Below are positions 3,200 to 49,557 of a stretch of 64,000 bases of DNA, piece by piece. Source of the stretch: Escherichia coli (GTDB taxonomy: Bacteria > Pseudomonadota > Gammaproteobacteria > Enterobacterales > Enterobacteriaceae). A program made the translations under genes and the position numbers. A model generated the notes under the pieces. It was not told the origin of the DNA, made no database searches, and saw only the letters and a list, made by a program, of their open reading frames with translations. The stretch is taken from the NCBI RefSeq assembly GCF_029227855.1, contig NZ_CP074356.1. One strand, 5' to 3'. Position 1 is the first letter of the stretch; each line of letters opens with the position of its first letter.

Positions 3200-3401
3200 C
3201 GAAATAATCTGGCAGTTATAAACGTTTATTTTTTTACTGTTTGTGATCTGCTTTCCGAACTTATTAAAAAGTCTCCCGCTTCATGGAGGCTTTTGTTATT
3301 GTCCTTTGTGCTTCTCGTCAGTAAATCATCAGGGATGATGTGAAGATTAAATGTAAAACAATTGTTTTGCTATAACAATAAATTAACTGGGAGGTTTTAT
3401 C

Positions 3402-4316: not shown

Positions 4317-4419
4317 AGTAAATGCCCCAAAAAAAGAGGACGGTTTAAATAAACTCTGCAATGAATAATTAACGTTATTTACCTGTTATGGGAAAAGTGA
4401 AATCAGCTCATAACATACG

Positions 4420-4700
4420 CTGACAGGTGTGGCACATTTGTGCCTGGGAAGAGGGTGAAAATCCCTCGCAGCCCCCGCTGCTGTAATGCTGACAAACCCG
4501 AAAATGCCACTGATCGCGAGATTGGGAAGGTCGGGAGAGGATGACGCTAAGCCAGAAGACCAGCCAGTCAGTCAATACCAACAACTTCGGTGGGAAGTGG
4601 GTTGCCCGGAAGCGTCCGGTAGAGTACCGGCGCGTCTTTATACCCCTACCACCCTGAAAGGATCAGGGTATGGCGGCATCATTTAGTTCTTTCATCGCAG
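4420..4700 (+). promoter_or_regulatory. Cobalamin (B12) riboswitch-like leader
   Basis: Conserved motifs GGTGAAAATCCC...GCAGCCCCCGCTGCTGTAA and a B12-box-like element AAGCCAGAAGACCAGCC, upstream of ORF 4801-5238 and cobUST. Confidence 0.6.
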
Positions 4701-8800: not shown

Positions 8801-8876
8801 TGGCTCCTCTGACTGGACTCGAACCAGTGACATACGGATTAACAGTCCGCCGTTCTACCGACTGAACTACAGAGGA
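8801..8876 (-). tRNA. asnV: tRNA-Asn (GUU)
   Basis: Reverse complement reads TCCTCTGTAGTTCAGTCGGTAGAACGGCGGACTGTTAATCCG...GAGGAGCCA; one of four identical copies in the window. Confidence 0.9.
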
Positions 8877-11209: not shown

Positions 11210-11285
11210 TGGCTCCTCTGACTGGACTCGAACCAGTGACATACGGATTAACAGTCCGCCGTTCTACCGACTGAACTACAGAGGA
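11210..11285 (-). tRNA. asnU: tRNA-Asn (GUU)
   Basis: Identical 76-nt tRNA-Asn sequence on minus strand; preceded by hairpin terminator 11176-11203. Confidence 0.9.
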
Positions 11286-37968: not shown

Positions 37969-38044
37969 TGGCTCCTCTGACTGGACTCGAACCAGTGACA
38001 TACGGATTAACAGTCCGCCGTTCTACCGACTGAACTACAGAGGA
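37969..38044 (-). tRNA. asnT: tRNA-Asn (GUU)
   Basis: Identical 76-nt tRNA-Asn on minus strand. Confidence 0.9.
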
Positions 38045-39035: not shown

Positions 39036-39125
39036 GGAGAGATGCCGGAGCGGCTGAACGGACCGGTCTCGAAAACCGGAGTAGGGGCAACTCTACCGGG
39101 GGTTCAAATCCCCCTCTCTCCGCCA
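39036..39125 (+). tRNA. serU: tRNA-Ser (CGA); prophage integration site
   Basis: GGAGAGATGCCGGAGCGGCTGAACGGACCGGTCTCGAAAACCGG...CTCTCCGCCA with long variable arm; integrase gene begins about 50 bp downstream. Confidence 0.9.
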
Positions 39126-39177
39126 AAATTCAATCACTTATACATCATTAAGTCAGTGACAAAAATCACACTTGGAA

Positions 39178-40203
39178 TTACTTGGAATATTTTCTTGGAA
39201 TATTTTCAGGTAACGGGACATCAAGTGTCGGTGAAACTTTAACCTTCCTGTCATAGATTAGCACTTGCCCCTCGGTTTTGTGACCAGAGAAAAGTTGCTT
39301 ATCCCGACTGCTTCCTTCATAGTCTGAAATTCCTTTCGCCTTCAGATCATGAAAGGTGAAGTCGGTTAAAATACCTGAAATTTTGCCTGCGCGATTTCTT
39401 GCTTCTACCCACATTTCGTTAAAGCCTTTGTACATATATCGGTTGCCGTACTGATTGCTGATTACATAGGCGGATGTTGGTAACTGTTTTGCTTTTTCGA
39501 TCGCCGCCTGTAATCGTGGACTCCATGCTTTTATCTGTTTTTTTCCTGTTTTCCCTTGCTGGATAAAGATCCCGTCGTTTCCAATCTGCTCCCATTTCAG
39601 CGATAACACATCGGAAACCCTCGCTGCACACAGATAGGCAATTTCCATTGCGATAAAAACAGGAAGAGGTGCAACGCTTAATACTGCCTGGTATTCTTTG
39701 TCGGTTACATATCGTTCGCGGTTTTTGGCCTTGAATTTACTTACACCTGCACATGGGTTAGCCTTCACGTACCCTCGCTCATACCCCCAACTGTAAACGC
39801 GGGACATACTGCTTTTTTCATGGTTGGCTTGCGTTTTACTCTGTTCCCCTCTCTTGTCCATGTATCGACGGATGTGTTCTGGTTTTATGGAATCTGCCGG
39901 CACCTTACCGAATACGGCAAGCAACTTTTTTTGATGTTGCAGATAATCTTTTTGTGTTCTTGGACTGAGGTCACTGTAATAGGCGCTGGCGAGGAATTTT
40001 TCCCACAAGCGACCGAATGTCATTGCACGATCGCGATTATTTACAGTTTCCTCATACTTTTTCCATAAAGCAGCTAAACCATCCTTGATGGCGGTTAGTG
40101 TTACAGATTCTCTGGATGTTGGTTTCCATACATAACTATATTTATTTGGGTATACATTTGGAGGTAATTTTTCGTGTTCAGGATTTTTCCTTCGTCTTCC
40201 CAT
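39178..40203 (-). CDS. int: Phage integrase (tyrosine recombinase)
   Basis: 341-aa ORF starting MGRRRKNPEHEKLPPNVY (lambda-Int-like N-terminus); adjacent to tRNA-Ser. Confidence 0.9.
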   Translation of the reverse strand: MGRRRKNPEHEKLPPNVYPNKYSYVWKPTSRESVTLTAIKDGLAALWKKYEETVNNRDRAMTFGRLWEKFLASAYYSDLSPRTQKDYLQHQKKLLAVFGKVPADSIKPEHIRRYMDKRGEQSKTQANHEKSSMSRVYSWGYERGYVKANPCAGVSKFKAKNRERYVTDKEYQAVLSVAPLPVFIAMEIAYLCAARVSDVLSLKWEQIGNDGIFIQQGKTGKKQIKAWSPRLQAAIEKAKQLPTSAYVISNQYGNRYMYKGFNEMWVEARNRAGKISGILTDFTFHDLKAKGISDYEGSSRDKQLFSGHKTEGQVLIYDRKVKVSPTLDVPLPENIPRKYSK

Positions 40204-40464: not shown

Positions 40465-42906
40465 TTAAAAATCAGCCTGACTCGGGATCAGTTTTTGCCA
40501 GATAGCTGAAACGTATTTTGCCTGGTAACGAGCGTCATCAAGTGCATTATGGCGCTCACCTTCGAATGGAATAGCCGTTCTGGCATCGAAGTCTATGGCT
40601 TTCCCCAGCTCAACGATTGTGCGTACATCGCGATCGTTGTAGTAACGCCACGGGCAGGGGATCCCCTGCCGTTCGTATGAACGGCGCAAAATCGTGTTGT
40701 CGAAGTTGGCTCCATTTCCCCAGACCTGAACAAAAAATTCACCGGAGTTTTCGTCGATAAATTCCCGCAATTGTAACAGTGCATCATCTAACGGGATTTC
40801 ATCGGTCATAATGGCAGATTGCGCTTCGCGTGATTGCTTAAGCCACCATTTAATGGTGTCCCGATCAATGACTCCGCCAGCAGTTTCCAGATCGATAGTC
40901 TTACTAAATTCCGGTCCCATATCTCCGGTTTGCGGATCGAAAAATATTGCACCTATTGAGATGATCGGGGCATCAGGATTTTTTCCCATGGTTTCAAGGT
41001 CGATCATTAGATGGTCACACGTCCTGCTGGTGGATGTGATTTCGTGATGACCATTCACCGTAATTAAGGGATCTGCCGTCTCGCCAGTTTTACTATCGCT
41101 GGCGTGGTCCTGAGCGCTGCCAGCATTCTCCTTGTGTGGATGTTCAGCGCCTTCCATTTCCTCCGGATCATTTTCCTGAACTTCAACCTGATTCTCTTCA
41201 TCGAATGTTTTCTGGTATGTTGCGTCGCCCATCACCGCGCCACAATCAGGGCAGTTGCCGCCACCGCTCTGACCGCAGGCGGAGCAGACTTTTTCCGGTT
41301 CCTGTTGCGCTACTGGTTCGGATTGTTTCGTTTCTGGCTCGTTTTGTAACGCATTTGGGCTGTTTTGTTCCGCTTTTTGGTCGTTCCGTTCCGATTCATG
41401 CTGGTTCTGGTTCACAGAATCGCGAGTCTGGATCCCCTTGACCCATTTCGGATCATTAGGGTCGCTAATCCCCTCAACAAATTCACCACGCGATACAGCA
41501 AGTAACTTATCGGCGTCAGGCTGGCTGATATTGGCTGCCTGCATAATTTTGTTTACTTCGTCAGCGGTGACTTTTACTTGGTTAGCGGAACTCACCTGCG
41601 ACTGAGCATCCAGCGACTGCGCGTTCTGGCAATGTTCAGTTGTATCCGGTTCCATTGTTTCAGTTGTTGCCTGTTCACCTGCCATTGCGTCAGATGGTTG
41701 TGGTTTTTCTTCTTCTGTTTCACGCTCAGTAACCACCTCGCGGTTAATTTCTTCCAGGATATCTTTTTCCGGCGTATGCCGGGCAGCTGTGAGAGTTTCC
41801 TTGCTGGGGTTCTCGTGATCAGTTTCCGTCAAATAGGCGTTGATATACCCCTGAAGGCGTCCCGGGTAGTGATAAAATTCAGGGTGTGCGCTTCGGATAA
41901 GTGCAAAAATAGCGGCGCGGGAATAGTCCAGAATACCCGGGGTTGCACGAAGTGCTGCGGACCATTCTTTGAACGGACTTTCTTTTTTCAGGACTACTTC
42001 TTTTGCGCGACGATAAACGCTGCCCGGAATTTCATAAATATTAAAATCCATCGGAAGTGTGGCTGCTGCAATCTCCACATCCAGTGTGTCGAGGGTGTGT
42101 ACTAAATTCGGACTGCGATCGGTTTTGTTCCCACCGCCAGCATTAGCACCGGAAGCCGTGCGGGTGATGCGTGAAACACGATTTCCTTTCATCCACTCTT
42201 TTGTCAGCAGACCCCGATCAGTGTAGTCAGCGTCCAGGTATGCTTCGAAAAAAGCAGTTATTAGTCCCAGGTCTGAATTACCAGGATTAGGGAAAACTTT
42301 GTCAGTGTCACGAACCAGTTTGTGGAGGTCGCGAATCTCCAGCGAGTCGAGCAGACTGGTTTTATGCGAAATAGCCAGGGCAGTAACAGCCGGTAGTTCT
42401 TCAGCCCGTGCAATGTGTAATGCCTGGAGTTCGTCGCGTGAAACGTGCGTTACTGGTTTTTCGCTGCCGTGTTGAGCAAGCCAACGAATGGGCAGTTCCT
42501 GACCGGAGACAGGTAGAAGCATGCTCTCCTCAATCTCAGTCATGTCTTCGCCGTTGATGTTGGTATTATCAGTGCTGGCTGATTTGTCCTGAACAGAGGG
42601 GGAAGGGCCGATAAATGTCATTGTGATGCCATCTTTCCCGCCTTTTTCATAGCGGTTGCAGAATTCAGTATCAAACACGCCTTCTGGCGGAAGGTCGTCA
42701 ACAACGGGCAAATTGACGCGGACGGGTTTTTTAAAGTCGTCTTCATCATAATCGTTGTCATCCATTGCGGTAATGCAGCGGGAGATTGCAACAGATAATT
42801 TTTTTGCTGTAGTCCAGTAAAAACCACCTTTAATTCCTAGGCGTTTTCTTACTTTGTCATTTTTTGCTTCGCAATATAGTGCAAATTCTTCTTTATCAGT
42901 GCTCAT
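40465..42906 (-). CDS. Prophage exonuclease (813 aa) with C-terminal DEDD/DnaQ-like 3'-5' exonuclease domain
   Basis: C-terminal motifs MIDLETMG and HNALDDA; CxxC...CxxC zinc-ribbon-like motif (CSACG...CPDCG); long acidic low-complexity middle. Confidence 0.7.
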
Positions 42907-42999
42907 TATTGATAAACCTCATCACAGATTTAAGGGTGAACAAATCTCTGCCATTGCTGACATATAAGAATGAAACTGGATATTTATTACGGTGCTGTT

Positions 43000-43191
43000 T
43001 TAAAATCCTGCCGGGATTTCGTTATTATCCTGGTGAATAACTTTATCGACCGGATAACAGTTGCCTGGAATTTTCTGTTCGGTTGCTGCTGCCATACATT
43101 CCTGCATTGTTCTGTGAACACTGACTGCAATATCAACTGGCTCTCCGGAAACAAGAAAAACCGTCAGAATAAGTGCAAATACTGGATTCAT
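43000..43191 (-). CDS. ydfD: YdfD-like small lysis/membrane protein
   Basis: Internal start MNPVFALILTVFLVSGEPVDIAVSVHRTMQECM... (63 aa); start overlaps the dicB stop. Confidence 0.6.
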   Translation of the reverse strand: MNPVFALILTVFLVSGEPVDIAVSVHRTMQECMAAATEQKIPGNCYPVDKVIHQDNNEIPAGF

Positions 43192-43376
43192 TGTGCACAT
43201 CCTTTTGGCATCAGACGTAAACGGGCCAGCATTGAAACAATGCATACTTTATTTAATAACTCCCGTTCGTGTTTTCTTTTGTTAATGGCCTCTTCAGTAA
43301 ATACAGGATTACTGATAGTGACACCAATTTCAAAACAACCTTCAGACGTATTAACGTTTGGTAATAACGTTTTCAT
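43188..43376 (-). CDS. dicB: Cell-division inhibitor DicB
   Basis: 62-aa ORF MKTLLPNVNTSEGCFEIGVTISNPVFTEEAINKRK... essentially matches the Qin prophage DicB as recalled. Confidence 0.8.
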   Translation of the reverse strand: MKTLLPNVNTSEGCFEIGVTISNPVFTEEAINKRKHERELLNKVCIVSMLARLRLMPKGCAQ

Positions 43377-43544
43377 TATCGCGCCCCAACAATGAGTTTT
43401 GTGATGCGGTGCCTGGTGCCTCCAGGTGACGTTAACCAGTTAACAATTAACGCCGGATACAGAGAATCCACCCATAACACTGTTTTTGGTTTTAACTGTT
43501 CCGCGTGCGCTTAGCCGCATTCACCGCATCACAAAATTCACTTT

Positions 43545-43602
43545 AAAAAGGGCGGCAGAGCAGTCACGGAGTAAAACTGATACCGCCAAACGTCACCAGA
43601 AA
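43545..43602 (-). ncRNA. dicF: DicF small RNA (ftsZ-targeting antisense sRNA)
   Basis: Reverse complement reads TTTCTGGTGACGTTTGGCGGTATCAGTTTTACTCCGTGACTGCTCTGCCGCCCTTTTT, including a terminator hairpin; immediately upstream of dicB. Confidence 0.8.
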
Positions 43603-43943
43603 ATTGATAACAGAGGGCGTTGCAGCGGGGTTGTCACTTAAGCGTATGGTCAACCTGACAACCCGGTGTCCTCAACGGGGGAAGGAATAACCCCGCCATA
43701 CTTACCGCCGCGCCATTTCGCGGATTGCCACAACCGGAAGCGCACGGTCGACGAAAATTTAACGACAGGCTATCTATGAACCAGCTACCTCGCCGTGCGC
43801 TTTCGCGTTATGGTCTGACTTTTCAGGGAAATATCCTTTCAGTAAACTGTCAGTGCCGGATGCTCACCCGTGTCCGGCGCACGCACTCCACCTCACCCGT
43901 GGAGAACTCCTTAATTACTAACCTTAGCTTTGTTGATTAGCTA

Positions 43944-44162
43944 CTAACGCGGGTATGTAATCATTCTGGCAATGCTTAATGCCGCTGCTTTTTCCAGATT
44001 GGTGATATCCTGCTCCAGAGCGGACAGATTTTCAGCCTGCTTAGCCCTGGCTTCATTAGCCCATTTCAGATCCTGCGCTGCATTAATTTTCTGGCGCATC
44101 CACTCATAAAGTTCATCATCGGTATAGTCTGGCGCGATGATGACGGGTTCTCGTTTCTGCAC
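43944..44162 (-). CDS. ydfC: YdfC-like prophage protein
   Basis: 72-aa ORF in the ydfA-ydfB-ydfC-dicF-dicB arrangement. Confidence 0.55.
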   Translation of the reverse strand: MQKREPVIIAPDYTDDELYEWMRQKINAAQDLKWANEARAKQAENLSALEQDITNLEKAAALSIARMITYPR

Positions 44163-44191
44163 GCTGATTCCTCGCGGTGCTGTTTCGCTTA

Positions 44192-44320
44192 TCAGCCGTT
44201 AGATTTTGCCGAACTGGAAAGCGCCTGTTTAAATTCGCTGAAGCTGAGAGCTTCTTCGCCTTCGGCAAGGCCTTCGAAGTATTCTTCGTAAGCCTTTTCC
44301 ATGATTGTGTCGAAATCCAT
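44192..44320 (-). CDS. ydfB: YdfB-like small protein (42 aa)
   Basis: Hand-translated ORF MDFDTIMEKAYEEYFEGLAEGEEALSFSEFKQALSSSAKSNG; below track size cutoff. Confidence 0.55.
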   Translation of the reverse strand: MDFDTIMEKAYEEYFEGLAEGEEALSFSEFKQALSSSAKSNG

Positions 44321-44321
44321 A

Positions 44322-44477
44322 TCACCCACCTGAATTTCTTTCCAGCCAGCGACGCGCTCCAGATTCGGTTTTAAACGTTTTGCTTTTGGTATACGTCATT
44401 GCGGTGAAGGTGCCGTCCTGGTTGGGAAACACGCCGTACACCAGAGATTCGTTGTTGCCAAGATCGATAGTATCCAT
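44322..44477 (-). CDS. ydfA: YdfA-like small protein (DUF1391-like, 51 aa)
   Basis: Internal start MDTIDLGNNESLVYGVFPNQDGTFTAMTYTK within track ORF 44322-44558. Confidence 0.6.
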   Translation of the reverse strand: MDTIDLGNNESLVYGVFPNQDGTFTAMTYTKSKTFKTESGARRWLERNSGG

Positions 44478-44774
44478 GCTGACCTCATTTCCCCTTAACG
44501 CCGGGGTAGCGGAACAAAAACCTGCTGCATAGTTATTAAAGTTGAACCCTGCCGTCATGTTCTTACGCCTCGGGCTGGCTACTTAACCCCTGACCACTGC
44601 CTGGTAACTCGAAGTATTGCCCTGCATTCTGTGGGGCGGGGTGGGTGGTAGGTATATAATGTACTTTTCGTTCATTGTTGTAAAGTACTTTTAGTACATT
44701 TTGTGTGTAAAAAAATGAGATGGGATAAAGTGAAGCACAAACCCGGAGGAAGGCGCTACCGGATTTATGCTGGT

Positions 44775-45194
44775 TTAAGAGGCTTTTTGTTTTTTCTTTC
44801 GTGCTAACTCTTCGTAAATTGCATTGTACTTCTGTTTTTTCTCTTCAAGAGTTTTTAAAAGTTCATCTGTCTCACTGTCAGGGAGCTCGTCCAGAAGGTC
44901 AATGATGATTTTTTGTCTTGGATTTAACTCCTGATAGAAACGTACCTGTCCACTTTCTTCTGTATCCTCTCCCAAAAGATAGGTTGGTGTTGTTCCTATT
45001 AGTGTTGCTAATTCCCTTAATTTCTCCCGGCGAGGAATTGTTTCGCCATTAAACCATTTGCTAACCGCTTTTGGTGTTAATTTCATTCGACGGGCAATTT
45101 CTGCCTGCCTTCCATGTTGTTCATAACCAGCGTTTTCACAGGCTAGCGCAAGCCTACTGGCGAACTCTTTACGCGCTTTATCTTCATGAACCAT
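44775..45194 (-). CDS. Prophage repressor (XRE-family HTH; DicA/RacR/CI-like)
   Basis: 139-aa ORF with HTH (GRQAEIARRMKLTPKAVSKWFNGE); divergent from cro-like gene; same direction as the leftward dicB operon. Confidence 0.7.
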   Translation of the reverse strand: MVHEDKARKEFASRLALACENAGYEQHGRQAEIARRMKLTPKAVSKWFNGETIPRREKLRELATLIGTTPTYLLGEDTEESGQVRFYQELNPRQKIIIDLLDELPDSETDELLKTLEEKKQKYNAIYEELARKKKQKAS

Positions 45195-45273
45195 AAGTTC
45201 AATGATATTCGCTCTTGAATGTACTGTCAGTTCTGTTATAGCATGTACTCAAAGTTCACATTGTGAGGGTGAT
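45195..45273. promoter_or_regulatory. Putative immunity-region operator/promoter interval between repressor and cro-like genes
   Basis: Short divergent intergenic region with repeated ATGTACT(G/C) motifs. Confidence 0.4.
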
Positions 45274-45528
45274 ATGAACCAGAAAACACTTGAAGATGTA
45301 ATCAAAACTGTTCGCGTTGCTGTTGTGGCCGACGTTTGTGGTGTCAGCCAAAGAGCAATCTATAAATGGATGGATAACGGAAAATTGCCTCGCACAGAAT
45401 ATACCGGCGAAACAAATTACGCTGAAAAAATCGCTCTTGCATCAAACGGATTATTTTCTGCCGATGCAATTTTAACTATTGGCAGGAATAAAACTACTAC
45501 GAAAAAGCTGATGGGAGTTGATTCATGA
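45274..45528 (+). CDS. Cro/YdaS-like HTH protein
   Basis: Internal ATG (MNQKTLEDVIKTVRVAVVADVCGVSQRAIYKWMDNGKLP) within track ORF 45202-45528. Confidence 0.6.
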   Translation: MNQKTLEDVIKTVRVAVVADVCGVSQRAIYKWMDNGKLPRTEYTGETNYAEKIALASNGLFSADAILTIGRNKTTTKKLMGVDS

Positions 45529-45950
45529 AAATCAAGCATGAACACATCCGCATGGCGATGAATGCCTGGGCGCATCCGGACGGCGAAAAAGTACCGGCTG
45601 TGAAAATTACCAAAGCGTATTTCGAGCTGGGAATGACGTTCCCGGAACTGTATGACGACAGCCATCCGGAAGCCCTGGCTCGCAATACTCAGAAAATTTT
45701 CCGCTGGGTGGAGAAAGACACCCCTGATGCGGTTAAAAAAATTCAGGCGTTGTTACCAGCTATCGAAAAAGCAATGCCACCTCTGCTGGTGGCCCGAATG
45801 CGCAGTCATAGCTCAGCCTATTTTCGGGAACTAGTGGAGACGCGGGAACGACTGGTGAGAGACGCTGATGATTTTGTCGCAGTGGCGATCGCTGGTTTCA
45901 ACCAGATGAATCGTGGTGGCCCTGCAGGAAATATTGTGGCTGTGCATTGA
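45525..45950 (+). CDS. YdaT-like prophage protein
   Basis: 141-aa ORF translationally coupled to the cro-like gene, in the YdaS/YdaT arrangement of Rac-type prophages. Confidence 0.5.
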   Translation: MKIKHEHIRMAMNAWAHPDGEKVPAVKITKAYFELGMTFPELYDDSHPEALARNTQKIFRWVEKDTPDAVKKIQALLPAIEKAMPPLLVARMRSHSSAYFRELVETRERLVRDADDFVAVAIAGFNQMNRGGPAGNIVAVH

Positions 45951-48257: not shown

Positions 48258-49401
48258 TTTTGGTTCAACTAAATACAACGTCAGTTTTGAAAAATGGCAT
48301 GAACTGTTAATGGACTATGCAGAGTTACGTGGTGGCAGTGCTGCTGATGCTGAAGCATGGCGTGATGATTATGAAGCAGGAAAAAATCCGGTCGAAGCAT
48401 ATTGTGATGAGTGGGGCGATGAATGAGCGAGATTAATTATCAGGAAGGGTATGAAACGGCGGGGCAAGCAAAACCAGTGGCATGGCGATATCGCTACGTG
48501 AAAAAAGGCGTTACGGACTTTCAGGAGAAGTAGTGGTCTGTTGACTGGAAATATGTACCGAAAAAAGAGGATTGTAACGACAGGCCGAACTATCAAATTC
48601 AGGCCTTATTCACTGCCTCACCAGCCCTGGTTACATCAGAAGAACTGGTTAAAGCTGTGCACTTTTATGAACAACTAAAACGCGAAAATCCACCAACATC
48701 CGGCAACTAGATTAATGGGTTAACTATGTCGGTTAAACGACCAGCCAACTGAAAAAGCGGAAACCTGATTATAGGTTGCCAGATAAGGCAATAAGCTACC
48801 TGGCGCGGAACGGACTGATAAGTATGGGGAATGTTTTACGATGAACCTTTAGACTAAAGAGTTTGTAACGCTATGTAAGTGATTTTTTCTAGTTTAGATA
48901 TTTATATGTCCGGCCAAATTGAGGTGTGTTTAAATGTAATTGCACATTGATTGTAGGAGGAATAATGAAAAACGCATTGCAGTTTTTGTTTGTTGCGTTC
49001 TGGTTGTTCGTATCATGTATGCCCATCATCTTCACAGCAAGGTATATGGAAAAAGTTGATGTTTTGATATTAATATTTGGATATATAAATGCCCTTTTTT
49101 TAGGGGTGTTCATGGCGGTCATGTGCATTGAATACTGGCGGTAAATACAGCGAACTCCATTGGTTTAGTTGGATATTTATTGTGCTGGACAAAAACGGTT
49201 TGCGGGGAAATCTTAGTTAAGTAGAATGACTGCGGGTGCTTGAGGCTATCTGCCTCGGGCATGAACACCAACGGCAGATAGAGAAAAGCCCCAGGTAACA
49301 TTACGCGTCCTGCAAGACGTTTAACATTAATCTGAGGCCATATCTATGCGACACATAGAGATTAGCCTCTTACGGACCGAAAGGTCAAGGAGAAGCAGGC
49401 T

Positions 49402-49557
49402 ATGAAGCAGCAAAAGGCGATGTTAATCGCCCTGATCGTCATCTGTTTAACCGTCATAGTGACGGCACTGGTAACGAGGAAAGACCTCTGCGAGGTACGA
49501 ATCCGAACCGGCCAGACGGAGGTCGCTGTCTTCACAGTTTACGAACCTGAGGAGTAA
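49402..49557 (+). CDS. hokD: Hok/Gef-family type I toxin (51 aa)
   Basis: Hand-translated MKQQKAMLIALIVICLTVIVTALVTRKDLCEVRIRTGQTEVAVFTVYEPEE; short upstream ORF ends at the hok ATG; terminator hairpin at about 49626-49650. Confidence 0.85.
   Translation: MKQQKAMLIALIVICLTVIVTALVTRKDLCEVRIRTGQTEVAVFTVYEPEE

Follow-up and report, generated by a model that had tools for sequence, protein, structure and literature searches.

An intact dicBF cassette in Escherichia coli, very probably forming the early-left operon of a lambdoid serU prophage

Introduction

The dicBF operon of the prophage Qin in Escherichia coli K-12 has been studied since the 1980s, and ydfE is counted in the literature as its last gene. 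Its small RNA (sRNA), DicF, is excised from a polycistronic RNA that starts at the promoter dicBp; RNase III first gives a 190-nucleotide (nt) species and RNase E then the 53-nt RNA (PMC10448788). DicF of K-12 represses the translation of ftsZ by base pairing and in an Hfq-dependent manner (PMC5069750), and for K-12 DicB, a MinC-dependent disassembly of the FtsZ ring has been established (cited in PMC10448788). Here, we describe another copy of the operon, lying at positions 43000-44477 of a 64,000-nt stretch of an E. coli genome (RefSeq assembly GCF_029227855.1, contig NZ_CP074356.1), which as a whole is referred to below as the window. With high probability, the region is an intact dicBF cassette and forms the PL-type (early-left) operon of a lambdoid prophage that has inserted at the tRNA-Ser gene serU. 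The module has been described before and is very widespread; a possible novelty is confined to a structured core following DicF that resembles the sRNA STnc100.

Gene content of the cassette

A preliminary description of this DNA had given the order as ydfA-ydfB-ydfC-dicF-dicB-ydfD and had called the module complete. Both statements were borne out by the list of open reading frames (ORFs), by the sequence and by base-by-base alignment to the Qin prophage of K-12 MG1655: all six elements are intact and collinear with K-12. The limits 43000-44477 correspond exactly to the ydfD stop codon and the ydfA start codon, and the module lies on the minus strand, a point on which the preliminary description was silent. 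The first gene, ydfA (44477..44322), encodes a 51 amino acid (aa) DUF1391 protein (Pfam PF07151, 99.4 bits; PHROG 751); it has 94.9% nt identity to K-12, and comparison of the translations gave two amino acid changes. Both ydfB (44320..44192; 42 aa; PHROG 2061; 98.4% nt identity) and ydfC (44162..43944; 72 aa; PHROG 1744; 99.5% nt identity) encode proteins identical to their K-12 counterparts, and the sole nt difference across ydfC is its start codon at 44162, which is GTG here and ATG in K-12. The dicF sRNA gene (43602..43550) follows, and 173 nt downstream of it starts dicB (43376..43188; 95.8% nt identity), which encodes the 62 aa cell-division inhibition protein. DicB matches its family profiles over all 62 residues (Pfam PF05358, 132.1 bits against a cut-off of 27; NCBIfam NF049927, 130.7 against a cut-off of 100), and 59 of the 62 residues are identical to those of K-12 DicB, the changes being D29E, Q36H, and I44V. 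The last gene, ydfD (43191..43000; 63 aa; DUF1482; Pfam PF07358, 87.9 bits; 91.7% nt identity), is annotated as "lysis protein" in K-12 and overlaps dicB by 4 nt, the same overlap as in K-12. All five module proteins are assigned to PHROG families of unknown function. Plus-strand ORFs antisense to the module (141, 71, 65, 75, and 51 aa) had no Pfam match and were judged to be spurious.

The presence of dicB bears on whether the locus could be of the DicF-only kind known from Shiga toxin (Stx) phages and enterohaemorrhagic E. coli, where dicF occurs without dicB and acts mainly on host or virulence mRNAs. Such loci do exist, as 13 of 113 DicF loci in IMG/VR have no dicB within 400 nt, and several Stx phage records match the dicF region alone. 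Here, however, an intact dicB that scores above both family cut-offs stands 173 nt from dicF; its presence already refutes this explanation, whose probability we put at next to nothing.

The alignment with the K-12 Qin dicF/dicB region extends over 1602 bp (window 44515..42915; K-12 1648470-1650070) at 96.6% identity with two single-base indels. Its non-coding parts are as well preserved as its genes: the ydfC-dicF spacer, 341 nt here and 340 nt in K-12, shows 98.5% nt identity, and the dicF-dicB spacer, 173 nt here and 174 nt in K-12, shows 96.6%. Homology to K-12 is limited to a stretch that reaches from 38 bp before the ydfA ATG to ~85 bp past ydfD.

DicF and its processing

The preliminary description had matched the DicF sequence to that of K-12, and this proved correct for 53 of 53 bases of K-12 b1574; the following 23 nt are also identical, and the first difference lies 24 nt past the 3' end. 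The Rfam DicF model (RF00039) gave 76.7 bits (gathering score 48; E 3.6e-15) over model positions 1-52 of 52. Neither the seed nor the terminator diverges: a check for such changes found both as in K-12. In the minimum free energy fold, the 5' 15 nt are unpaired and are followed by the bipartite hairpin of the family and then by UUUUU, in agreement with the Rfam consensus. A chance resemblance is excluded by this Rfam score, by the match at 53 of 53 bases, and by the 96.6% identity to Qin over 1602 bp. Because the RNA is identical, the K-12 experiments on DicF apply here. The gene is easily missed, since the RefSeq/PGAP annotation of a near-identical cassette (NZ_CP117016.1 808080-809558) lists the five proteins YdfA, YdfB, YdfC, DicB, and YdfD and no dicF ncRNA.

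Upstream of dicF, the ydfC-dicF spacer contains a long hairpin (43728..43813, minus strand), the arms of which (43813..43787 and 43754..43728) pair when the RNA from 43943 to 43545 is folded with RNAfold; its 19-bp inverted repeat was also seen by blastn. Counted back from the DicF terminator, a 190-nt species would start at ~43735-43740, which is inside the 3' arm of this hairpin. The hairpin is thus a probable RNase III substrate yielding the 190-nt DicF precursor, which is consistent with the K-12 scheme.

Immunity region, promoters and operators

No DNA homology to K-12 was detected upstream of 44515, and the K-12 genes dicA and dicC and the promoter dicBp are absent there. The sequence found in this place is arranged as an immunity region. 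A PL-like promoter (TTTACA-17-CATTAT; 44684..44656, minus strand) was found by promoter scan ~170 nt upstream of ydfA; it matches the consensus at 9 of 12 positions. A 17-bp motif, ATGTAC-N5-GTWCAT, occurs at five sites around the repressor gene. Two of these sites (44659-44675 and 44683-44699; repeat families D1, D2, and D4), with a spacing of 24 bp, overlap the -10 and -35 hexamers of the PL-like promoter. The others form an OR-like cluster (45186..45259) between the repressor and cro-like genes, comprising 45219-45235 and 45243-45259, again 24 bp apart, and a weaker, possible site at 45186-45202. When the 64-kb window was searched with the operator pattern, ~10 distinct sites were returned, five clustered at the repressor gene and ~5 being loose matches in the remaining 63 kb. 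A PRM-like promoter (CTGACA-17-TATCAT; 45230..45202) has its -10 hexamer, TATCAT, at 45207..45202; as 7 nt separate this hexamer from the repressor ATG, a leaderless repressor mRNA is suggested, like that of lambda cI. The layout is the classical one of OL/PL plus OR, in which, judging by sequence, the 17-bp sites would function as operators, be bound by the repressor and bring about repression.

The repressor gene (44775..45194, minus strand) encodes a short, DicA-like helix-turn-helix (HTH) protein of 139 aa, in which Pfam HTH_3 was the only match and no peptidase domain was detected. It is 29% identical to K-12 DicA over 112 aa (E 5e-15) and scores 56.8 bits with the NCBIfam DicA model, the cut-off of which is 101. 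Divergent from it are a cro-like HTH gene (45274..45528, plus strand; 84 aa; a weak Pfam HTH_17 match; PHROG 35, transcriptional repressor) and a cII-like or YdaT-family gene (45525..45950, plus strand; 141 aa; PHROG 163, CII-like activator, 152.8 bits), which in the prophage of strain MLI121 is annotated as "toxin YdaT family protein". Phage Tritos has the same immunity region at 97.8% identity, and there the repressor is annotated as CI ("CI repressor") and the cro-like gene as Cro.

The prophage and its insertion site

The left end of the prophage (39036..40203) consists of the tRNA-Ser(cga) gene serU, placed by ARAGORN at 39036-39125 on the plus strand, prophage DNA from 39126 onward, and an integrase gene at 40203..39178 on the minus strand. 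Strain JNEC-KY178 (NZ_AP045174.1) has an empty site: it is 100.0% identical over window positions 13100-37900, and its serU is followed by zinT. Measured from the beginning of serU, its match to the window stops precisely at 39125, which places the insertion at the serU 3' end. From 37965 to 64000, the window is 99.26% collinear with the annotated serU prophage of strain MLI121, the integrase of which is frameshifted, whereas the 341 aa frame is full here. The annotation of that prophage runs from the integrase through the dicB operon, the immunity region, the replication-region genes, hokD, and RusA to Q, tRNAs, lysis genes, and then terminase, portal, and head genes. The element extends past the end of the 64-kb window, and what we describe is its left part. 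Downstream of ydfD, an exonuclease gene (40465..42906, minus strand) encodes 813 aa with Pfam matches to Exonuc_VIII and to an Rv2179c-like 3'-5' exoribonuclease domain.

Other parts of the window also resemble Qin; segments with hokD, ydfU, rrrQ, ynfO/ydfO, and nohA are 85-98% identical. Together with the 96.6% identity of the six-element block, these segments are what one would expect if the window held the K-12-type cryptic prophage Qin itself, with DicA, DicC, and Rem controlling the operon just as they do in K-12. We consider that very improbable. Homology around the operon is confined to the stretch from 38 bp upstream of ydfA to ~85 bp past ydfD; the repressor has only 29% identity to DicA and falls under the NCBIfam DicA cut-off; neither a Rem nor a YdfE homolog was found in the window; and the element is at serU with integrase, terminase, portal, and head genes, which Qin lacks. 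The alignment boundaries already refute this explanation, as there is no K-12 dicA, dicC, or dicBp sequence at 44516-45300. We also considered whether the 813 aa exonuclease might be an undisrupted version of the K-12 pseudogene ydfE; this was dropped because the two show no similarity, the best BLASTP match to the ydfE translation having an E of 3.1.

The conserved unit is the six-element cassette only, and its regulators and downstream genes have been exchanged between prophages. Therefore, the regulatory knowledge gained in K-12 (DicA, DicC, Rem, and induction by urea and heat) is not transferable to this copy.

Assigning the cassette to a PL-type operon of this prophage has several points to contend with. 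The promoter scan returned seven sites where 5.0 were expected in shuffled sequences, and the promoter and operators are defined only by their resemblance to a consensus or to repeats. The repressor is distinct from DicA, and no Rem antirepressor homolog was found in the window (tblastn, best E 0.68). Pairing of DicF with the K-12 ftsZ leader gave -40.8 kcal/mol in RNAduplex, relative to a mean of -36.5 for shuffled DicF, and 141 of 1000 shuffles were as good; as RNAduplex permits large loops, this result is uninformative and adds no support. Finally, the ftsZ leader of the host is located outside the window.

A further possibility is that the cassette is a decaying, non-functional remnant, present in sequence and no longer expressed or active. 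The K-12 operon does belong to a defective prophage, and under standard conditions it is not expressed (PMC10448788); in addition, ydfC has a GTG start here, and the promoter matches its consensus at only 9 of 12 positions. Against decay, all five reading frames are intact and of full length, and YdfB, YdfC, and DicF are identical to those of K-12; the two non-coding spacers, at 96.6-98.5%, are conserved equally to or above the coding parts; the operators and promoter are arranged as in a working immunity region; and the prophage has an intact integrase and full early, lysis, and packaging gene sets within the window. We therefore regard the remnant explanation as improbable and retain that of an intact cassette serving as the early-left operon of the serU prophage.

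The dicF-dicB spacer and its relation to STnc100

The dicF-dicB spacer has a structured core of ~150 nt (43392..43541, minus strand), recognized by RNAfold, by a sub-threshold match to the Rfam family STnc100, and by our covariance model R1, described below. RNA from 43549 to 43370 folds at -65.2 kcal/mol (z -4.92), and 0 of 200 shuffles were as stable. The predicted fold has a closing helix of ~15-20 bp around several hairpins and is followed by a 9-bp hairpin over the dicB AUG. Rfam STnc100 (RF02076) aligned to 43538..43398 over model positions 21-154 with 38.8 bits (E 2.5e-6), below the gathering score of 47; the same model gave 34.4 bits with the K-12 spacer and 36.8 and 33.9 bits with two divergent variants. 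By these scores, the spacer is a relative of STnc100 but not a member at the Rfam gathering score. A permissive Rfam search of 42900-45300 returned nothing beyond DicF and this sub-threshold match.

A DicF pattern scan of IMG/VR provided 120 loci with 56 distinct spacers. The 56 variants share a conserved consensus structure of 42 pairs with a variable middle, and in loci without dicB, homology still spans the structured core next to DicF. R1, which was built from 34 spacer variants, found the true STnc100 of the window with 40.3 bits (E 1.7e-9), the next unrelated match being at 13 bits, and in this alignment all four helices are retained through different base pairs. A shared hairpin, TCACCnGGAGGCACCnGGCACC, was found by nhmmer. 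Within the spacers themselves, a double change occurs in only 4 of the 42 pairs, the covariation term is -0.61 kcal/mol, and the sequences are too similar to prove a structure; support for the structure thus comes from its stability, its conservation, and the comparison with STnc100, and not from covariation within the spacer family. A put-type antiterminator RNA was considered as an identity for the spacer and was rejected as unlikely, since the best R1 match in phage HK022 had 15 bits and consisted of trivial hairpins.

The full-length STnc100 sRNA gene (53648-53837, plus strand; 132.4 bits) belongs to the late region of this prophage, between the prophage tRNAs and the IraM-like and lysis genes; in a related contig (L006), two tandem STnc100 copies are found beside its tRNAs. 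In recent work, STnc100 is described as a prophage sRNA that is related to PasD and is located just downstream of stx2 in Stx phages (bioRxiv 10.64898/2026.05.13.724894; PMC12370729). Neither dicF nor dicB is mentioned in the bioRxiv preprint, and in PMC12370729, DicF is named once, as an Stx-modulating sRNA and not in connection with STnc100 structure. No paper linking STnc100 to the dicBF operon was found in a limited full-text search of the literature for STnc100.

We give about even chances to the proposal that the operon has a second functional RNA element in its dicF-dicB spacer, with a ~150-nt multi-branched core that shares ancestry with STnc100/PasD and travels with DicF even where dicB is missing. 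Such a core might serve RNase III as an entry site, thereby detaching DicF from the dicB mRNA; it might be a 5' stabilizer or a translational gate for dicB, the AUG of which is predicted to lie in the 9-bp hairpin just after the core; or it might be the source of a further sRNA. If true, an STnc100-like core after DicF would tie two prophage RNA families together.

Distribution of the cassette

A match to the cassette was found in 4760 of 5426 complete E. coli genomes (88%), and in 2123 of these 4760, a single place spans 80% or more of the cassette; the number of places per genome has a median of 2 and a maximum of 10. Sixty phage records match the cassette, five of them (the temperate phages Tritos, PhiR42_1, and vB_EcoS-689R5, and others) with at least 80% of its length. 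In 2016, no DicF or DicB matches were reported among ~2000 phage genomes (PMC5069750); unlike in that survey, both are present in current phage collections. The 53-nt DicF sequence is identical to this copy in 91 of 123 DicF copies, which were mostly from IMG/VR contigs. An unannotated stretch of 246 bp in the 254-kb record of Aeromonas phage AP1 (MT713136.1, 249906-250152) is 98% identical to dicF and the dicF-dicB spacer (window 43612..43367); this may reflect contamination, a chimeric assembly, or recent transfer.

Other features of the window

Within the prophage, the 813 aa protein sits at the place that ydfE has in K-12 and has an N-terminal exodeoxyribonuclease VIII (RecE-like) region fused to a C-terminal Rv2179c-like domain. 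A sok antitoxin RNA (49234-49404, plus strand; 100.8 bits) marks a hokD-type toxin-antitoxin locus, and this segment shows 98.4% identity with the hokD region of K-12 Qin. Two prophage tRNA genes are located downstream of the Q antiterminator gene: that at 52694-52769 (plus strand) has the anticodon CAT and is called Met by ARAGORN and tRNA-Ile in the annotation of the near-identical MLI121 prophage, and that at 52875-52951 (plus strand) is tRNA-Arg(tct).

Outside the prophage, there are four tRNA-Asn(gtt) genes (8801-8876, 11210-11285, 13034-13109, and 37969-38044), which make up the asnV/U/W/T region. The ~25 kb between the third and the fourth starts with a tyrosine integrase gene, the product of which is only 73% identical to the high-pathogenicity island (HPI) integrase of strain MLI121, and by the annotation of identical genomes, it also includes an RHS element, an Ig-like-domain protein, amn, and shiA. 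An EFASI RNA (16543-16670, minus strand; 100.8 bits) and a C4 antisense RNA (18104-18192, minus strand; 62.2 bits), the latter of the P1/P7/P4-type immunity RNA family, both lie between tRNA-Asn genes and suggest an island of satellite or phage origin. Also present in the chromosomal part are a cobalamin riboswitch aptamer (4408-4582, plus strand; 109.4 bits) and the sRNA STnc230 (3258-3341, minus strand; 71.1 bits).

Discussion

The K-12 work on repression, processing, and division effects (PMC10448788, PMC5069750) allows a mechanism to be proposed by analogy. In the lysogen, a short DicA-like repressor encoded by the prophage itself would bind the 17-bp operators overlapping the PL-like promoter, and the operon would be silent. 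When repression is lifted, a polycistronic RNA would be made; RNase III would cleave it at the long hairpin upstream of dicF, and RNase E would trim the product to the 53-nt DicF. The DicF hairpin and U-tract would be expected to terminate most transcripts, and the read-through RNA would carry the structured spacer and then dicB and ydfD. With Hfq, DicF would use its 3' part to pair with the leader of the ftsZ mRNA, reducing FtsZ synthesis, and other parts of the sRNA would act on the xylR, pykA, and manX mRNAs. DicB would bind MinC and target it to the septum, where the FtsZ ring would be disassembled; it should also block phage DNA entry via ManYZ. YdfD would act as a lysis protein. The statement in the preliminary description that derepression of the operon would block FtsZ function is sound when argued from the K-12 experiments (PMC5069750, PMC10448788), because DicF is identical to that of K-12 and DicB nearly so, at 59 of 62 residues.

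The closest described system is the K-12 Qin operon itself (ydfABC-dicF-dicB-ydfDE; b1571-b1577). Both have the six elements in one order and with like spacing, and the probable RNase III hairpin and the spacer between dicF and dicB are conserved in sequence. Control, however, is by dicA, dicC, dicBp, and their operators in K-12, whereas a heterologous immunity region is found here; in K-12, ydfE follows ydfD and rem is present, whereas here the 813 aa exonuclease gene follows ydfD and there is no rem in the window. In addition, Qin is a truncated element, and the one described here is a serU-integrated prophage with structural genes.

With regard to its spacer, the cassette may be compared with the STnc100/PasD sRNAs. 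The shared core comprises a closing helix (GNNUGGUG/CACCANNC), an internal GC hairpin, a variable middle, a long hairpin, and a CCNGG-AGGCA-CCNGG hairpin. The spacers score 34-39 bits against a gathering score of 47, and the spacer is without the 3' arm and terminator of STnc100; moreover, STnc100 is a free-standing sRNA gene, whereas the spacer is part of an operon, with an sRNA terminator before it and a start codon after it.

The repressor resembles the short DicA/Gifsy-type repressors (DicA, GfoR, and GftR), which are controlled by antirepressors: it has 139 aa with an N-terminal HTH and a short helical tail (PMC10448788), no S24 peptidase domain was found in it, and it has 29% identity to DicA. 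It differs from them in its NCBIfam DicA score (56.8 bits, under the cut-off of 101) and in operators unlike those of K-12, and no cognate antirepressor was identified in the window.

Finally, the arrangement can be set beside the lambda PL operon with kil, an early-left phage operon in which kil encodes a division inhibitor directed at FtsZ. The repressor here is without a LexA-type cleavage domain, and neither an N gene nor a nut site was identified; the inhibitor is double, an sRNA and a protein, and a sequence relation between DicB and Kil is not claimed. The likeness is one of plan: leftward transcription from a repressor-controlled promoter beside the repressor gene, and a small division inhibitor followed by recombination, xis, and int genes (PMC10448788, PMC3961180).

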